DNA of 10,867 nt from a virus (lineage: Duplodnaviria; Heunggongvirae; Uroviricota; Caudoviricetes): the IMG/VR virus record IMGVR_UViG_2537561979_000004, positions 1 to 10,867 of that record. One strand, 5' to 3'. Positions 1-10,591 of this stretch are shown piece after piece. Position 1 is the first letter of the stretch. Every line of letters starts with the position of its first letter. The notes under the pieces were generated by a model. That model ran no database searches. It saw only the letters and a program-made list of their open reading frames with translations, and was not told the DNA's origin. A program made the translations under genes and the position numbers.

Positions 1-441
1 GAAGGCTGGCTGTATCTGGCAGTGGTCATTGACCTGTGGTCACGTGCCGTTATTGGCTGGTCAATGTCGCCACGCATGACGGCGCAACTGGCCTGCGATG
101 CCCTGCAGATGGCGCTGTGGCGGCGTAAGAGGCCCCGGAACGTTATCGTTCACACGGACCGTGGAGGCCAGTACTGTTCAGCAGATTATCAGGCGCAACT
201 GAAGCGGCATAATCTGCGTGGAAGTATGAGCGCAAAAGGTTGCTGCTACGATAATGCCTGCGTGGAAAGCTTCTTTCATTCGCTGAAAGTGGAATGTATC
301 CATGGAGAACACTTTATCAGCCGGGAAATAATGCGGGCAACGGTGTTTAATTATATCGAATGTGATTACAATCGGTGGCGGCGGCACAGTTGGTGTGGCG
401 GCCTCAGTCCGGAACAATTTGAAAACCAGAACCTCGCTTAG
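1..441 (+). CDS. insF: IS3 transposase OrfB (DDE integrase domain), C-terminal part; 5' end truncated by the window edge
   Basis: Open frame from position 1 ([20 protein letters not shown]...) to TAG at 439-441. Contains the HTDRGGQY and CYDNA motifs typical of IS3-family DDE transposases. Confidence 0.85.
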
Positions 442-471
442 GCCTGTGTCCATATTACGTGGGTAGGATCA
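1..471 (+). mobile_element. IS3-family insertion sequence, 3' portion (5' part lies outside the window); right terminal inverted repeat ends ...GGCCTGTGTCCATATTACGTGGGTAGGATCA at 441-471
   Basis: The ORF translating to ...[15 protein letters not shown]...[10 protein letters not shown]...[11 protein letters not shown] matches the C-terminus of IS3 transposase OrfB as I recall it. The terminal sequence ending TGATC-complement (..GGGTAGGATCA) matches the IS3 terminal inverted repeat recalled from memory. Confidence 0.85.
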
Positions 472-682: not shown

Positions 683-1000
683 CTACGGCAGTGCTGGCCA
701 TTCAATATCCTGTGCAGTTGACGTATCAACACGGTTCAGCAACACCCGATACTTCTTCCAGGCTTCCACCACCAGCACGACAAGATGCCGCATACAGTGA
801 CCCAGTCAGTCCAGTTTCCAGACAACCAGTGCGTCACCTTTTTGAAGGCGCTTTAAAGCACGTTTTAATCCAGGTCGGCCTGTCCTTATTCCGCTTAATT
901 TATCTTCAAATATTTGTTCACATCCTGCACAAACAAGAGCGTTTCGTTGCAGGTCTGTATTCTGGTCATTTGTTGATACCCTTACATAGCCAATCAGCAC
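683..1000 (-). pseudogene. pin: Pin-type serine DNA invertase N-terminal remnant (GTG start at 1000; MLIGYVRVSTNDQNTDLQRNAL...) interrupted by an in-frame TGA at 806-808, then reading into a tail-fibre-assembly C-terminal peptide ([27 protein letters not shown])
   Basis: Minus-strand translation gives about 65 residues of a Gin/Pin/Hin-type catalytic N-terminus including the Ser nucleophile motif YVRVST. After the stop the same frame shows pin-like [12 protein letters not shown], then a conserved Tfa C-terminal motif. The expected invertase C-terminal HTH is absent on this strand. Confidence 0.7.
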
Positions 1001-1054
1001 GCTGAATCTCCCGTCCAAAAGCACAAATCATGCCATGCAGGCCAGAAACCGCCA

Positions 1055-1080: not shown

Positions 1081-2026
1081 ACGATAAATCAGGCTTCTGG
1101 CGCATTACAGAAAAACCAGAACGGCGCAGATATTCCGGGAAAAGATACCTTCACCAAAAACATTGGTGCCTGCCGCGCATATAGCGCATGGCTGAATATT
1201 GGTGGCGATAGTCAGGTCTGGACAACTGCGCAATTTATTTCGTGGCTGGAGAGTCAGGGGGCATTTAACCATCCTTACTGGATGTGCAAAGGCTCATGGG
1301 CTTATGCAAATAATAAGGTTATTACAGATACAGGTTGCGGAAATATTTGTCCTTGCAGGTGCTGTGGTGGAAGTTATTGGCACTCGCGGCGCAATGACCA
1401 TACGCGTTACTACGCCGAGCACGTCCAGCGGTGGCGGAATTACTAACGCTCAATTCACTTATATTAATCATGGTGATGCTTACGCTCCTGGCTGGCGACG
1501 AGACTACAACACGAAAAACCAGCAGCCTGCATTTGCTTTAGGGCAAACAGGACGCAGGGTCGCAAATGATAAAGCTGTTGGCTGGAACTGGAATAGCGGT
1601 GTTTATGATGCAGATATCAGTGGTGCATCGACATTAATCCTCCACTTCAATATGAATGCGGGGAGTTGCCCTGCTGTACAGTTCCGCGTGAATTACAGGA
1701 ACGGCGGTATTTTTTATCGTTCAGCGCGTGATGGTTATGGCTTTGAAGCTAACTGGTCAGAGTTTTACACCACAACACGCAAACCCTCTGCGGGGGATGT
1801 TGGTGCATATACGCAGGCAGAATGTAACTCAAGGTTTATTACAGGTATTCGCCTTGGCGGTCTGTCATCTGTTCAGACATGGAAAGGCCCCGGCTGGTCT
1901 GACAGGTCAGGTTATGTCGTTACGGGTTCAGTTAACGGAAACCGTGATGAATTAATTGATACAACTCAGGCAAGGCCAATTCAGTATTGCATTAATGGGA
2001 CGTGGTATAACGCGGGGAGTATTTAA
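1069..2026 (+). pseudogene. stf: Variable C-terminal segment of a side tail fibre (Mu S / P2 H-like invertible-cassette type), apparently frameshifted near 1348-1355
   Basis: From the gix site one frame reads ALQKNQNGADIPGKDTFTKNIGACRAYSAWLNIGGDSQVWTTAQFISWLESQGAFNHPYWMCKGSWAYANNKVITDTGCGNIC. The protein then continues only in the +1 frame (LAGAVVEVIGTRGAMTIRVTTPSTS... to TAA at 2024-2026). No constant N-terminal tail-fibre region precedes it. Confidence 0.65.
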
Positions 2027-2028
2027 CG

Positions 2029-2562
2029 ATGATGCACTTAAAAAACATTACTGCTGGCAACCCTAAAACAAAAGAGCAATACCAGCTAACAAAGCAATTT
2101 AACATCAAATGGCTTTATTCAGATGATGGAAAAAACTGGTATGAGGAACAAAAGAATTTCCAGCCAGACACTTTGAAAATGGTCTATGACCATAACGGCG
2201 TTATTATTTGTATTGAAAAGGATGTTTCAGCAATTAATCCAGAGGGTGCAAGCGTCGTTGAATTACCTGATATTACAGCAAATCGCCGGGCTGATATTTC
2301 GGGGAAATGGATGTTCAAAGATGGCGTAGTGATAAAGCGAACTTATACCGAGGAAGAGCAGAGGCAACAAGCGGAAAATGAAAAGCAAAGCCTGTTGCAA
2401 CTTGTCAGGGATAAAACCCAGCTATGGGACTCACAGCTACGGCTGGGCATCATTTCCGACGAGAATAAACAAAAATTAACCGAGTGGATGCTCTATGCGC
2501 AGAAAGTCGAATCTACAGACACTTCCGGCCTGCCAGTAACGTTTCCCGAACAACCAGAATGA
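2029..2562 (+). CDS. tfa: Tail fibre assembly protein (Tfa / Mu U family)
   Basis: 177 aa beginning MMHLKNITAGNPKTKEQYQLTKQF...KNWYEEQKNFQPDT, matching the conserved Tfa N-terminus as recalled. Starts 2 nt after the stf stop. Confidence 0.85.
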   Translation: MMHLKNITAGNPKTKEQYQLTKQFNIKWLYSDDGKNWYEEQKNFQPDTLKMVYDHNGVIICIEKDVSAINPEGASVVELPDITANRRADISGKWMFKDGVVIKRTYTEEEQRQQAENEKQSLLQLVRDKTQLWDSQLRLGIISDENKQKLTEWMLYAQKVESTDTSGLPVTFPEQPE

Positions 2563-5757: not shown

Positions 5758-6153
5758 CTAACCTCGCATGTCAAAGCCAGATTTCTGAAAATCTCTGTAG
5801 ACTTCCGGATTGTTGAAGGCCGGAAATTTGGCTTTATGAGCTGCGGACTTTATCGCTTCGCAATAGGCTTTATCACCGTTACTGGTAGATATTTTTAACG
5901 CCGTGCCATCCTGAGAGAATTCCATATGCAACCTGCATTTTTTCCCTTTCCAGTTATGCGGCTCATCAAGTTTGGCATTAATTGCAGCTCTGATTCCCCG
6001 CGCTTGCGCCCCCCATTCATCCTGATCATCCCAGCGTCCTGAACTGCAACTACCTGTAGCAGTAGTTTTGTGGCAATCTGAAGGGTGTAAAGGTGTGCAT
6101 CCCGCAACAAAACCGACCCAAAAAGTCAACATAACGATTTTCTTTAATCCCAC
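5758..6153 (-). CDS. Lipoprotein with divergent TolA domain-III-like C-terminal module (cargo gene 1)
   Basis: GTG start with GAGGAG upstream. Signal peptide MGLKKIVMLTFWVGFVAGC with lipobox Cys. The C-terminal ~80 aa (...GKKCRLHMEFSQDGTALKISTSNGDKAYCEAIKSAAHKAKFPAFNNPEVYRDFQ...) shares the conserved pattern of the TolA C-terminal domain at lower identity. Confidence 0.7.
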   Translation of the reverse strand: MGLKKIVMLTFWVGFVAGCTPLHPSDCHKTTATGSCSSGRWDDQDEWGAQARGIRAAINAKLDEPHNWKGKKCRLHMEFSQDGTALKISTSNGDKAYCEAIKSAAHKAKFPAFNNPEVYRDFQKSGFDMRG

Positions 6154-6303: not shown

Positions 6304-6732
6304 TCAGGGTTTAAAATCCAGCACCCCATTTTGAAATACTTTATATACTTCCGGCGAAGGGGGGGCAGGTATATCAGCATTCTTTATCGCATTCATCGCT
6401 TCACGACATAAATCGAGGTCTCCACTTTCTCTTTTAACCTCCAGTAGAAGGCCATTCGGGGCCATATGCATTCTCAGTGTACACTCTTTTCCTGAATACT
6501 TACTCGCATCCCCGAACTGTTTTTCGATGGCGCTCTTGATTTGATGGGCATACAGACGGATATCCTCACTAACATCAGAAGTACGTTCAGATAAACTCAC
6601 ATACTGTGTCTCTATTGCTTTATCGGAGTAATATGATGTACGGTCATGATAATTTGTCGATACAGCATCAGTGCACCCGATAATAATCCCACTAATAATC
6701 AACGTAAGAATTGATGCGCTACGAAAACCCAT
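6304..6732 (-). CDS. Lipoprotein with TolA domain-III-like C-terminal module (cargo gene 2)
   Basis: ATG with GAGG upstream. Signal peptide MGFRSASILTLIISGIIIGC (lipobox). The C-terminal ~85 aa (IRLYAHQIKSAIEKQFGDASKYSGKECTLRMHMAPNGLLLEVKRESGDLDLCREAMNAIKNADIPAPPSPEVYKVFQNGVLDFKP) aligns closely with the TolA C-terminus as I recall it (...QIKSAIESKFYDASSYAGKTCTLRIKLAPDGMLLDIKPEGGDPALCQAALAAAKLAKIPKPPSQAVYEVFKNAPLDFKP). Confidence 0.75.
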   Translation of the reverse strand: MGFRSASILTLIISGIIIGCTDAVSTNYHDRTSYYSDKAIETQYVSLSERTSDVSEDIRLYAHQIKSAIEKQFGDASKYSGKECTLRMHMAPNGLLLEVKRESGDLDLCREAMNAIKNADIPAPPSPEVYKVFQNGVLDFKP

Positions 6733-7320: not shown

Positions 7321-7349
7321 CCCAAAAAGAACCGCCTAAACAGGCGGTT
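7321..7349 (-). terminator. Rho-independent terminator (candidate tR'-like) in the Q-to-cargo intergenic region
   Basis: Hairpin AACCGCCT-aaac-AGGCGGTT (7330-7349), followed on the minus strand by CTTTTTGGG. Confidence 0.5.
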
Positions 7350-7594
7350 GGTCAATACAAAGGATGCTTCGTCTTTATTATAGTAATCTGAGGCGTCGGG
7401 TGTCTTGTATCAGACAACATATTGTCCCGCTAAACAGCGAATTACAAACCACCCTGCAATGATCTCTCATCTCATTTTATATGAGTTGACGACATCAGGA
7501 TAACGCATCATCAGCCCCTGCCAAGAAATATCAAAACTCCCGCCAGCAATGTGTTATCACAATATTGTAAAAAAAACACAGCACCGAAACTATA

Positions 7595-7632
7595 ACTGGT
7601 CTCTGTTATAATTTGGAGCAGAAAGACCAGTT
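7595..7632 (+). promoter_or_regulatory. Extended -10 promoter-like element (TGTTATAAT, 7604-7612) flanked by an 8-bp inverted repeat ACTGGTCT / AGACCAGT
   Basis: TGn-TATAAT on the plus strand, antisense to the late operon. Inverted repeat arms at 7595-7602 and 7625-7632. Confidence 0.3.
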
Positions 7633-7665
7633 GCCCAACTAGCAGCATTCTCCCCTGCTTTCCTG

Positions 7666-7700
7666 ACGTAAAAAAACCGCATTAAGCGGTTTTTTTACGT
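7666..7700. terminator. 35-bp perfect palindrome ACGT-A7-CCGC-ATTAA-GCGG-T7-ACGT; bidirectional intrinsic terminator about 80 bp downstream of the Q-like gene
   Basis: Perfect dyad seen directly in the sequence. The A-tract/U-tract architecture is typical of bidirectional terminators. Confidence 0.6.
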
Positions 7701-7777
7701 ATGTCCATGTCTGCAATCCGCCTCGCGATACAGCTTTGCGAAGCATAGCAAAATTGAAGCAGTTTATACGTAAGAAA

Positions 7778-8320
7778 TCAAGCCATTTTCTCAGCAAATG
7801 ATTCACGCATGGGAATATATAGGGCATACTCAGCAACAGCTAACCAATTAGCAATCCGTTTTTCGCATGTGCTAAAACACCACTCTGGGTGTGCATCATT
7901 TAGCAATTCAGCCATTTTGCGCTTAGTCATCCCCCGCCCTTCATAGCGTTGCCGGAGAATGCAAATCAATCCTGGATGCTCTGCCAGCACCTCACTTATG
8001 ACTCGATCAATACATAACGCCTCTGCATCAGTACAATGCGCCAGCCAGCTCTTTTGCTTGCCGTTGATCATCTCTCGCAAAAACGCTTCCAGCTCAGCTT
8101 TCTCTATTCCCGCTTTTTTCATTCTGCGCAGGGCTTCATTAATGGCTGTTTTCGTCAGTTTTTTGGATGCCAACAACTGATTGAACATATTCCCTGACCT
8201 GCCACCGCCAATATACGACCAGCGCCCCCACATACGTAGTTTTCCCTGAATCCAGACACTTTCCAGCGTGGTGAGGCGAAGGTGTTCTCCGCTTTTTCCT
8301 GTATTCGTTGGGTAAATCAT
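7778..8320 (-). CDS. Putative late-gene antiterminator Q-like protein (family assignment tentative)
   Basis: 180-aa ORF translationally coupled to the upstream gene (ATGA overlap at 8317-8320). It is the last gene of the nin-like block before the lysis cassette, the canonical position of Q. Sequence family not verified. Confidence 0.5.
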   Translation of the reverse strand: MIYPTNTGKSGEHLRLTTLESVWIQGKLRMWGRWSYIGGGRSGNMFNQLLASKKLTKTAINEALRRMKKAGIEKAELEAFLREMINGKQKSWLAHCTDAEALCIDRVISEVLAEHPGLICILRQRYEGRGMTKRKMAELLNDAHPEWCFSTCEKRIANWLAVAEYALYIPMRESFAEKMA

Positions 8321-8607
8321 AAATGACCTTTCTTTCTCCAGATTTCTTGTGTGCGAAAAACCCCTTCAGCATGCATCAGGCGCAATTCTTCTTTGGTGTA
8401 ATCGCTGGTTTTTACCCGCCCGTCGATTAGATCGTGGCATGAGCTACAGGCTATCGCCGCCTGCATATCGTGTGGTTTTGTCGCTGTTCCGCACGTCCCC
8501 GCCAGCCTGTAATGCGCCAGCACAGAGGTTTCGGGATTGTGATTGCAGTAGCCAGGGATTCTGATCTGGCACATCTGGCCTTTAGCCGCTTTACGTAAAT
8601 TCACCAT
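8317..8607 (-). CDS. Small Cys-rich phage nin-region protein (DUF1364 / YbcO-like, putative zinc-binding)
   Basis: 96-aa ORF MVNLRKAAKGQMCQIRIPGYCNHNPETSVLAHYR...CSSCHDLIDGR with four or more Cys in two clusters. TAATG overlap with the upstream gene. Family recalled from memory. Confidence 0.5.
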   Translation of the reverse strand: MVNLRKAAKGQMCQIRIPGYCNHNPETSVLAHYRLAGTCGTATKPHDMQAAIACSSCHDLIDGRVKTSDYTKEELRLMHAEGVFRTQEIWRKKGHL

Positions 8608-9206
8608 TACGCAAACTCCAGTAGTTGTGCGGCCACATTTTCAACTTCCTCCTGAGAGGAGAATTTACGAAACAGAATCCAGTTCCACAGCACATTCAGT
8701 ACAGATTTATAAACCTGCTGAAACTCGACTTCGTCCATATTCGCAAAAGCGATGGATTTTGCCCGACGCCCACGGCTACCGTCCGGATAAATATGCTCGG
8801 TGTAAAATCCGGCCTGAATGGTTACCCACTCGCGGAAAGCCTCAAACGACTTTAGCAACGCCGTATCCCGGGTTCTACGAGTCGCAACGGTGTTAAGGTA
8901 TTGCTCTGCGGCATCACTCAGGGCTGGCGTGTGTTCCCGACCAACTGATTCGCACAGGTAATCAACGAAACCAGACAGCAGTTCTCGTTCGCGAGGCGTG
9001 ATCGCCCCACCGACCGGAGTCCAGTAATCGAATCCCAGTTGCAGGAGTTTGAAAAAACGCTTGTGGAATGCGTAGTTACGCACACGCTTAAAGTCTGCGT
9101 GTATCCACTCACCTATTTTGATTTGATGCAGAAAATCGCAACTCTCCGGCGTCGCCGGGAGAAGTAAACCAGAAGAAGTTTGTTTGACCAGTTGTATATG
9201 CGCCAT
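8607..9206 (-). CDS. Phage nin-region protein (DUF1367-like, resembles Rac YdaW-type proteins)
   Basis: 199-aa ORF, first gene of the coupled three-gene block, with a candidate promoter upstream. Family by recollection and context only. Confidence 0.45.
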   Translation of the reverse strand: MAHIQLVKQTSSGLLLPATPESCDFLHQIKIGEWIHADFKRVRNYAFHKRFFKLLQLGFDYWTPVGGAITPRERELLSGFVDYLCESVGREHTPALSDAAEQYLNTVATRRTRDTALLKSFEAFREWVTIQAGFYTEHIYPDGSRGRRAKSIAFANMDEVEFQQVYKSVLNVLWNWILFRKFSSQEEVENVAAQLLEFA

Positions 9207-9264
9207 TTCTCAATCTCTCGATGGCGCAGCGCAGCAGATGCCAGTTGTTCAGGCTGACGAATAA

Positions 9265-9292
9265 AGTATAAATAAACTGGCTATGGTGTAAA
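9265..9292 (-). promoter_or_regulatory. Candidate sigma70 promoter for the DUF1367-DUF1364-Q block (-35 TTTACA at 9287-9292, 16-bp spacer, -10 TATACT at 9265-9270)
   Basis: Hexamers read on the minus strand about 60 nt upstream of the ATG at 9206. Confidence 0.4.
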
Positions 9293-9486
9293 GCCCCACA
9301 TAGCATGAACAAACACTACATATCAAATAGCTGGTACAAGGATAGAAATACGACATTTATTATTAAAAACGATTAGATAAATTACATTTTAATGTTATGC
9401 AAAAGTTCTTTTTTATCATAACATTTCAATAAAAGCATTACAGATGCAATCATCCCGTCATCATCAATTATTTAAGGTGGTTAAAC

Positions 9487-9573
9487 ATGGAAAATAACAA
9501 GTTCGCACATCTCGCTCCTTTTTTATCCGTAATCCTTTTCGCTTGTTGTTTTATATGGGCATTATTTTTATAA
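9487..9573 (+). CDS. Candidate 28-aa hydrophobic small protein (MENNKFAHLAPFLSVILFACCFIWALFL)
   Basis: Strong Shine-Dalgarno AAGGTGG (9474-9480) 6 nt before the ATG at 9487. Single predicted TM helix. Sits in an otherwise ORF-free AT-rich block. Below the length cut-off of the ORF track. Confidence 0.3.
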   Translation: MENNKFAHLAPFLSVILFACCFIWALFL

Positions 9574-9978
9574 AGTAGCCACATGATAAGTTGCTGGAAT
9601 CATATTTCCCACTCAAGTCATTAACATTTGATAAGATATATCTAAAAGGACGCCTTTACATTATTTATGTGTATATAATTTATTTATATACACAGTAAAG
9701 GTATCCTGGGAAAATATTTATCGTTAAAAAATACATCATAAATAATTAAGCTGAAATTTCAGAACACAACTAATACACACAATAAGGTTCAGTAACAATA
9801 ATCTATGTGGACTACATCGAGATTTTTTGATTAAACTTTAATAACTTATTCCTAACACACAGAATGCATAAACTAAAAGTAAAACAAATAGTTATACAAA
9901 AAACAACCATATTTATTATATCTTCTCCTCTAATCAACATATCAATTATGTGTTTCATAACAGCTTGACATAACCCTC

Positions 9979-10007
9979 AAAAACACGCATTTATAATGCA
10001 TGTTTTT
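9979..10007 (+). promoter_or_regulatory. Promoter -10 (TATAAT, 9992-9997) embedded in an imperfect inverted repeat AAAAACACGCAT-ttata-ATGCATGTTTTT resembling an NsrR operator
   Basis: 12-bp arms with one mismatch. The core AACACGCATTT-a-TAATGCATGTT matches the 11-1-11 NsrR consensus (AAnATGCATTT-n-AAATGCATnTT, recalled from memory) at about 20 of 22 positions. A TTGACA at 9965-9970 is 21 bp from the -10, too far for a canonical -35. Confidence 0.45.
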
Positions 10008-10019
10008 GAGGAGGTGGTT

Positions 10020-10358
10020 ATGACACACAAGAGAATTCCTAAAGATTGGGTAATCAAACGCTCAACTCCGTTCTTCACAAAAGAGAACGTACCTTCAGCG
10101 TTATTAACACATCATAATACAGCAGCAGGTGTTTTTGGGCAGTTGTGCGTAATGGAAGGCACTGTAACATATTATGGTTTTACTGATGAGAATGCTACTG
10201 AACCGGAGATAAAAGTAGTCATTAATGCTGGCGCTTTTGCAACAAGCCCACCACAATACTGGCACCGTGTTGAACTAAGCGATGATGCTCAGTTTAATAT
10301 TAACTTTTGGGTCGCTCCAGACTTCTCGGGCGAAAAAGTCTATAGCACCAAAAAATAG
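10020..10358 (+). CDS. YeaR-like DUF1971 family protein (TehB N-terminal-domain-like)
   Basis: ATG at 10020 with GAGGAGG 6 nt upstream. Protein MTHKRIPKDWVIKRSTPFFTKENVPSALLTHHNTAAGVFGQLCVMEGTVTYYGFTDENATEPEIKVVINAGAFATSPPQYWHRVELSDDAQFNINFWVAPDF... shares the RSTPF...H.T..GV...L.VM.G.V.Y.G...E..EP......AG.FA..PP..WH..E...D..FNI.F.VAP pattern of E. coli YeaR as recalled. Confidence 0.7.
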   Translation: MTHKRIPKDWVIKRSTPFFTKENVPSALLTHHNTAAGVFGQLCVMEGTVTYYGFTDENATEPEIKVVINAGAFATSPPQYWHRVELSDDAQFNINFWVAPDFSGEKVYSTKK

Positions 10359-10387
10359 ATGATCATATTAAAAATGCTTTAACAGTC

Positions 10388-10425
10388 AGACCCGGCAGGG
10401 CTATCCCCGACGGGTCTCATTTTTG
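10388..10425 (+). terminator. Probable rho-independent terminator downstream of the yeaR-like gene
   Basis: Stem AGACCCG / CGGGTCT (10388-10394 and 10411-10417) with an internal GGG-ctat-CCC mini-hairpin, followed by CATTTTTG. Confidence 0.45.
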
Positions 10426-10591
10426 TAAATATATTGGTTCTACATTGACAGGAGACTTCAACCATAAGAAGTAATCTGAATACTTGAGCAATAAATTTAC
10501 TTAAGATTAATGAGCGCACCTTGCCGGACAAAGATAAACCAAGGTAACACCTTTTTTCTAGCCAGTATGTAATCAATCAGAAAGCCGCTCC

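Follow-up and report, generated by a model that had tools for sequence, protein, structure and literature searches.

Phi4, a prophage of the E. coli ST131 strain EC958, is the described system to which the present locus is most usefully compared. The passages of Forde et al. 2014 (PMC4134206) on this prophage report that a truncated DNA invertase without the HTH domain (EC958_1582) adjoins an invertible tail-fibre segment of ~3.1 kb. They also report that both orientations of the segment were present in PacBio reads of one EC958 culture, for which another invertase was inferred to act in trans (Forde et al. 2014, PMC4134206). The window analysed here (the whole stretch of 10,867 nt, taken from an IMG/VR record of a Caudoviricetes virus) contains a comparable invertase stub on its minus strand, at 683-1000. 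A sequence-only reading had described this stub as a pin gene fused across a single TGA to a tail-fibre assembly (tfa) gene, leaving a frozen invertible system. The stub itself is an annotated scar of wide distribution and in essence already in the literature; the analysis adds to published knowledge the tfa tail as part of a joint of single origin, the gin/pin mosaic, the spread between prophages, and a correction of the view that the system is frozen.

Composition of the stub and its Rac surroundings

The features to which the analysis refers are as follows (coordinates of the window; strand in brackets where one applies).

1-471 (plus): 3' part of an IS3 (end of orfB and right end), inserted in pinR; 99.8% identical to the annotated IS3 of the near-identical L001
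472-585 (plus): last 37 codons of pinR (the Rac resolvase-type recombinase), with the HTH domain; HTH_7 E=3.5e-8 and a match to the 3' end of K-12 pinR
586-682: tfaR-pinR spacer of Rac, 97 nt; near-identical to K-12 (L005, 8988-9084)
683-768 (minus): tfa 3' fragment, made up of the last two bases of the junction codon, 27 codons and the stop TAG at 685-683; 98% identity to K-12 tfaR
769-805 (minus): pin-type patch of 12 codons (805->770); identity to pinE
808-806 (minus): in-frame TGA, at the site of the conserved Arg in the KLDRLGRS motif
809-1000 (minus): Mu-type gin, 64 codons; GTG start as in the gin genes of Mu and P88, catalytic Ser9 kept
1001-1054 (minus): gin upstream stretch, from crossover site to start codon; alignment with Mu and P88
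1055-1080: gixR-type 26-bp crossover site, TTATCTAAAACCTCGGTTTACAGGAA; one mismatch from Mu gix
1081-2026 (plus): alternative tail-fibre C-terminal segment of Mu S'v type; 94% amino acid identity to Mu S' in two frames
2029-2562 (plus): intact tail-fibre assembly gene of Mu U' type, 177 aa; Pfam Caudo_TAP E=2e-36
2572-2576: second illegitimate junction, at which similarity to Mu/P88 (up to 2576) and to K-12 Rac (from 2572 on) overlaps by 5 nt

When the minus strand is translated from 1024 to 680, invertase codons, the TGA, pin-type codons and the Tfa tail follow one another in a single frame throughout; translation and Pfam thus bear out the order that had been read from the sequence alone, namely an invertase N-terminus, a TGA, pin-like codons and a Tfa C-terminus in one minus-strand frame. 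The lengths given at that time, about 65 and then about 14 residues, are revised to 64 codons counted from the GTG (1000->809), followed after the TGA by 12 pin-type codons and one hybrid codon. With the TGA read as Arg, the product matches two Pfam profiles, Resolvase over positions 2-94 of 145 (E=2e-22) and Caudo_TAP over positions 104-130 of 131 (E=3e-11); each score lies above the gathering cut-off, and chance resemblance is ruled out for both parts.

At the DNA level gin of Mu, D108 and P88 shares 93-96% identity with the stretch 1100->810, and over the opening 101 nt of the gin part (1000->900) the match to Mu gin is complete (101/101). Further along the same strand 795->769 equals K-12 pinE at 27/27 nt, and 771->472 is 98.3% identical to K-12 Rac DNA that comprises the 3' end of tfaR, the intergenic region and the 3' end of pinR. 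Judged by these identities, the stub reads as a three-part mosaic of Mu-type gin, a pin-type patch and tfa; the earlier assignment of the invertase part to pin survives for the patch, while the bulk is Mu-type gin and the whole hence a mosaic. Around the TGA, a run of 16 nt (810->795) resembles neither Mu gin nor pinE well (8-10/16), with flanks that match at 95% and 100%; this stretch is common to all copies.

The Ser nucleophile Ser9 (YVRVSTNDQ) is kept in the stub, and the Resolvase profile is covered only over the positions given above. In the alignment with Mu, P88 and pinE all sequence past codon ~86 is missing and invertase homology stops at 769; the remainder of the catalytic domain has gone, as have the E-helix and the HTH domain, in agreement with the loss of the C-terminal DNA-binding domain that had been proposed, and the read-through product has no Pfam match to HTH_7. 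Because the fusion has lost the end of the catalytic domain together with the E-helix and the HTH domain, the stub is unable to recombine DNA. A functional invertase has an uninterrupted reading frame of about 185-195 codons, whereas here the TGA follows after 64 codons; likewise TfaR of K-12 has 191 residues, and the last 27 complete codons are what is left here, so that the Caudo_TAP protein is not full-length. Existing annotation records both remnants: the gin part is the 64-aa recombinase family protein WP_001378636.1 (in L001, L002, L003 and L009), and the tfa fragment is labelled by PGAP as an incomplete tail fiber assembly protein in L001. A protein of 84 aa from E. coli (P0060), which its source labels an EAST1-family enterotoxin, has an EAST1-like N-terminus joined to residues 8-64 of the gin stub, which suggests an astA-carrying insertion into the gin stub of another strain.

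From 2572 onward the window consists of K-12 Rac DNA, followed by trkG and the lysis cassette (as annotated in the near-identical L001). Since Rac DNA thus lies on either side of the Mu/P88-like stretch and the stub, the window is a Rac-type prophage remnant in which the interval from trkG to the 3' end of tfaR has been replaced by half a G-type segment and the invertase stub. The pinR gene is cut by IS3 in the window (an ORF at 22-441 is the C-terminus of the IS3 transposase) and intact in L001, L003 and L035. No complete E. coli genome in the collection has an IS3 at the pinR position of the window; near-identical strains have their IS3 in the lysozyme gene. In FORC_082 the full length of the window is matched, though broken into four pieces. 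Two lipoprotein-like ORFs (5758-6153 and 6304-6732, minus) are situated between the lysis cassette and a Q-like gene; their counterparts in L001 and L035 are labelled TolA C-terminal domain proteins, and the two ORFs may be cargo of the prophage. Homology to other copies of Rac ends at ~10591, and ~10591-10867 matches a stretch of L003 that includes the end of an annotated IS1.

Distribution of the junction and origin of the fusion

The junction is present in 538 of 5426 complete E. coli genomes (~10%), counted with a 141-nt probe spanning it at a coverage of at least 80%. Gin-type copies occur in Rac beside pinR (L001, L003), at bio-ybhB beside a diguanylate cyclase gene, and at trp-ompW beside a methyltransferase gene (L008, L010, L011), and a pin-type copy with the same junction adjoins potB. 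The TGA and the junction are shared by every IMG/VR contig with the patch (23/23), while the tfa 3' tails of these copies are of at least four kinds (...ALP, ...TNPVRE/TNPVME, ...TGPIIE and ...KEPDTI). Across 21 distinct copies the stretch 800-760 is invariant; past the crossover point, from 1076 outward, the copies show several alternative sequences. As to orientation, 59 genomes have window-type flanks and up to 240 have L003-type flanks, the latter count including matches that extend barely past the inverted repeat, and both counts show only that several different flanks exist.

Versions with an open frame also exist. Three products returned by the protein search (P0019, P0023 and P0024; 102-107 aa) have a pinE-like N-terminus, an intact KLDRLGRS motif and a joint at which LVVLV is followed by VEAWKKY; the gene of P0024 (L036) has a nucleotide-identical junction and is pin-type throughout, including an e14-type pix site. 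The same junction and TGA at several sites, together with this open-frame pin-type version, point to one old illegitimate fusion, distributed afterwards through homologous recombination. An intact parental invertase with the 12-residue patch was found neither with exact and degenerate DNA patterns in IMG/VR, nor by phage/plasmid BLAST, nor in the protein search; these searches returned only chimeras and one intact pin allele (L038) with a GAC-AGA-CTG-GGT stretch. No intact parent having been found, we infer the order of events (a pin-type fusion, then replacement by gin) from the shared junctions.

Spurious contigs do arise from invertible regions, and L038 resembles such an artefact: this IMG/VR contig of 4025 nt has the same intact pin at both ends, inverted, flanking an e14-type P segment, and is probably an assembly of both switch states rather than a real structure. 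For the stub, an origin of this kind (a chimeric contig or a wrong TGA) has a likelihood close to nil, as the same sequence recurs in many independent complete genomes and IMG/VR contigs, and the 64-aa product WP_001378636.1 is annotated in L001, L002, L003 and L009.

The feature is very probably a non-functional recombination scar, left where a Gin-type invertible tail-fibre cassette, grafted onto lambdoid prophages at their stf-tfa end, has its right border. The donor would have been a P2/Mu-like cassette composed of the constant part of the fibre, gixL, Sv-U, U'-S'v, gixR and an invertase gene. On the left this cassette may have entered by a homologous crossover inside stf, and on the right by an illegitimate crossover from invertase codon ~86 to a point in tfa 28 codons before the stop. 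The first fusion would have had a pin-type 5' part and an open frame; later, in the lineage seen here, the 5' ~190 nt would have been swapped for Mu-type gin through homologous recombination, and the TGA would have arisen. The conserved 3' motif of tfa could then have provided the right homology arm with which the cassette moved between prophages at several chromosomal sites. In the copy of the window a further deletion, which also took out gixL, has fused mid-segment sequence with DNA downstream of trkG. In the full copy L010 a P88-like constant part of the fibre (10440-10952, 91%) lies beside gixL and overlaps an stfR-like 5' part (10859-12354, 89%), and by this overlap the left border is a crossover in shared homology. 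The ungrafted state is found in K-12 and EC6622, which have a full tfaR beside pinR and no gin stub.

The sequence-only reading had instead favoured a deletion or recombination between pin and a neighbouring tfa. In its simplest form this would be a local deletion in one ancestral prophage of the source strain, joining an intact pin to a co-directional tfa downstream of it, and the pin and tfa parts are indeed co-linear and in frame, with a short similarity at the joint. Such a deletion is nevertheless unlikely, because Mu, P88 and e14 have no co-directional tfa-like gene past the invertase, and the left cassette border in full copies, being a homologous crossover in stf, favours a graft over a deletion. 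The identical junction in 538 genomes and several prophage contexts also means that the joint predates the source strain; a recombinational fusion was therefore rightly proposed, and a local deletion in this strain is what falls away.

Alignment to pin and tfa genes of related prophages places the breakpoint between 769 and 768 and identifies the downstream peptide as Tfa-derived. The joint reads, from the pin side, ...GTGCTGGTGG followed directly by TGGAAGCC... from tfa; the junction codon GTG is a hybrid with its first base from pin (GAG) and its second and third from tfa (CTG), and TG..GGA around the joint is common to both parents. The short similarity that had been noticed at this place is real, and the peptides involved are the pin-type VLVEE and the SLLEA of Tfa, not LVGE of Gin against LLEA. 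The pin-derived part ends exactly at a Chi octamer, GCTGGTGG (776->769, minus), which is native to pinE, and the base that follows is tfa-specific. A separate pin::tfaE fusion (P0054; L037, 1378-1686) has its break at nearly the same pin position, only a few nucleotides away, and at its joint GTGCTGG of pin matches GTGCTGGAT of tfaE.

Because the pin part ends exactly at GCTGGTGG and an independent pin::tfaE break lies nearby, the gin'::tfa' scar might be a mark of portable, invertase-less G-type cassettes that keep only gix sites and the enhancer within the stub, depend on the invertases of co-resident prophages, and are captured by lambdoid phages by a preferred route at a Chi-containing microhomology; we regard this extension as tentative and unlikely. 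The nearby break in P0054 could also speak for a joint produced by the invertase acting site-specifically on quasi-gix sites in pin and tfa, and Cin and Gin occasionally use quasi-sites. The best 26-mers that overlap the junction have, however, 14 (pinE) and 12 (tfaR) mismatches to gix/pix against a random mean of 13.0, and the AAACC..GGTTT core is absent at the joint. With a quasi-gix score equal to background, a site-specific origin is exceedingly improbable and was rejected: a joint without likeness to a crossover site was not made by the invertase.

The TGA was present in 30/30 independent copies examined; it is genuine, and the sequencing error that might have undone the earlier reading is ruled out. 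That reading had expected CGA at this position. The nearest relatives have AGG, AGA, CGG or CGC, and the closest allele found around the TGA is the intact pin of L038, which reads GAC AGA CTG GGT CGC AGT. Since the AGA of L038 is one substitution from TGA and the other relatives have AGG, CGG or CGC, nothing specific points to a change from CGA to TGA. A subset of copies (the trp-ompW lineage) has acquired extra stops, TGG->TGA and TGG->TAG, on both sides of the joint, and these also fall inside an internal ORF of 36 codons. The stub is a decaying, non-functional pseudogene.

It could still be asked whether the fusion acts as a small protein, an inversion regulator or a fibre-assembly factor, produced by read-through of the TGA or from an internal ATG (794-792; 36 residues with the Tfa C-terminal motif). 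The fusion is in frame, and open-frame versions of 102-107 aa are known (P0019, P0023, P0024) in which the catalytic Ser9 and the D-R-x-x-R motif are kept. An in-frame joint is, however, expected by chance in one case out of three; the TGA is fixed in every gin-type copy, a subset of which has further TGA or TAG stops on either side; and the stub is without E-helix and HTH domain, its Resolvase match being limited to 2-94 of 145. We consider a functional small protein very unlikely, as the fixed TGA and the additional stops make neither a conserved read-through nor a 36-codon product credible.

Crossover sites and inversion of the tail-fibre segment

The Mu- and P88-like DNA of the window (94-96% identity over 810-2576) covers the 5' part of gin, the crossover site, S'v, U' and 14 nt past the U' stop. 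At 1351 one additional C shifts the frame of S'v; neither Mu nor P88 nor the 99.96%-identical L001 has this base, which could be a private mutation or an error in the source sequence. The window has the S'v-U' half of the segment only (1081-2562), the other half having been deleted at 2572-2576, whereas full mirror pairs are present in L008, L010 and L011. At 2572-2576 the G-type segment breaks off at its centre and continues as Rac DNA from within the ynaK 5' end, at a point 166 nt downstream of trkG.

A search for a second crossover site in the window found none, the next best candidate having 7/26 mismatches; the same search on L010 finds both of its sites. The site of the window is the Phi4_3prime site of EC958 except for an exchanged half-site. 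The stretch 1055-2562, which had been taken for the invertible segment, has no second site at its far end and runs into the illegitimate Rac junction. Owing to the loss of gixL by deletion, local switching is impossible in the copy of the window, and recombination with a partner site outside the window would yield a chromosomal rearrangement, not a tail-fibre switch.

Inversion is seen in copies with both sites. Strains 463 and 446 (L010 and L011; clonal clinical isolates from Taiwanese sputum, with genomes of 5,215,401 and 5,215,457 bp) have flanks that are 100.000% identical over 7.4 kb and 3.9 kb, and between them 7348-10466 shows a clean gix-to-gix inversion of a 3,119-bp segment beside the same, multiply stopped stub. 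The distal half-sites are exchanged (ACAGGAA versus ACGAGAA), and the inversion swaps the C-terminus of the fibre, whose gene is 2826 nt in one strain and 2907 nt in the other (940-970 residues). The crossover sites of these two strains are those listed for EC958 Phi4 in the passages of Forde et al. 2014 (PMC4134206). At the Rac locus, the segment of L003 has the orientation opposite to that of the window. Copies with both crossover sites are still inverted, apparently by an invertase acting in trans. The claim of a frozen system accordingly stands for the window, mainly since the partner site and half of the segment are deleted, and fails as a deduction from the broken invertase, because the same stub flanks inverting segments in strains 463 and 446 and, according to the passages on Phi4, in EC958 (PMC4134206).

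The stub has two Fis-like motifs, with 95.5 and 144.5 bp between their centres and that of gix. The Fis-dependent enhancer of Mu is said to have been located inside gin by Kahmann and co-workers in 1985. Judged by its identity to Mu gin, the stub appears to keep, besides gixR, a gin 5' stretch with a putative Fis enhancer. In the related Hin system ~100 bp separate the enhancer from hix (PMC3798978). A test for added constraint on the putative enhancer stretch among 21 distinct copies gave no signal in either direction; variable sites are evenly scattered over the stub.

Significance and comparison with known systems

The stub accounts for two small neighbouring annotations, a 64-aa 'recombinase family protein' and an 'incomplete tail fiber assembly protein', that occur in ~10% of complete E. 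coli genomes. It also illustrates that a broken adjacent invertase is poor ground for calling a tail-fibre switch frozen, as inversion in trans is available if both crossover sites survive, and its illegitimate joint is a well-dated marker of a tail-fibre cassette moving between lambdoid prophages by homologous recombination. The stub opens no new mechanism; it is real but ordinary.

Among known systems, EC958_1582 of Phi4 in E. coli ST131 EC958 is the same element, and the junction is found in EC958 at 97% identity (H185). The 26-bp crossover sites given for Phi4 in the passages of PMC4134206 are the same as here; those passages of Forde et al. 2014 describe neither a tfa-derived tail nor a gin/pin mosaic nor spread between prophages. 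In the EC958-type copy both crossover sites are kept, whereas that of the window lies in Rac and has one site and half a segment; the copies of R4, 463 and 446, which are of the same Phi4 type as EC958, carry extra stop codons.

The likeness to the Gin G-segment of Mu, D108 and P88 extends over 810-2576 (94-96%, for Mu and P88), with the first 101 nt of gin as in Mu. Unlike Gin of Mu and P88, the invertase of the window is cut after codon ~86 and stopped at codon 65; the segment has lost gixL and the Sv-U half, and its host element is here a lambdoid prophage, in contrast to the Mu and P2-like phage hosts. Pin of e14 (K-12 pinE) is identical in the 27 nt before the junction, and the open-frame P0024 is pinE-like throughout with an e14-type pix site; the whole stub, however, is only ~74% identical to pinE, and e14 has an intact 184-aa Pin followed by mcrA. 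The right end of K-12 Rac (stfR-tfaR-pinR) is 98.3% identical at 472-771, and 2572-3977 matches trkG and its downstream region; in contrast to K-12 Rac, the window has stfR and the first 163 codons of tfaR replaced and pinR cut by IS3.
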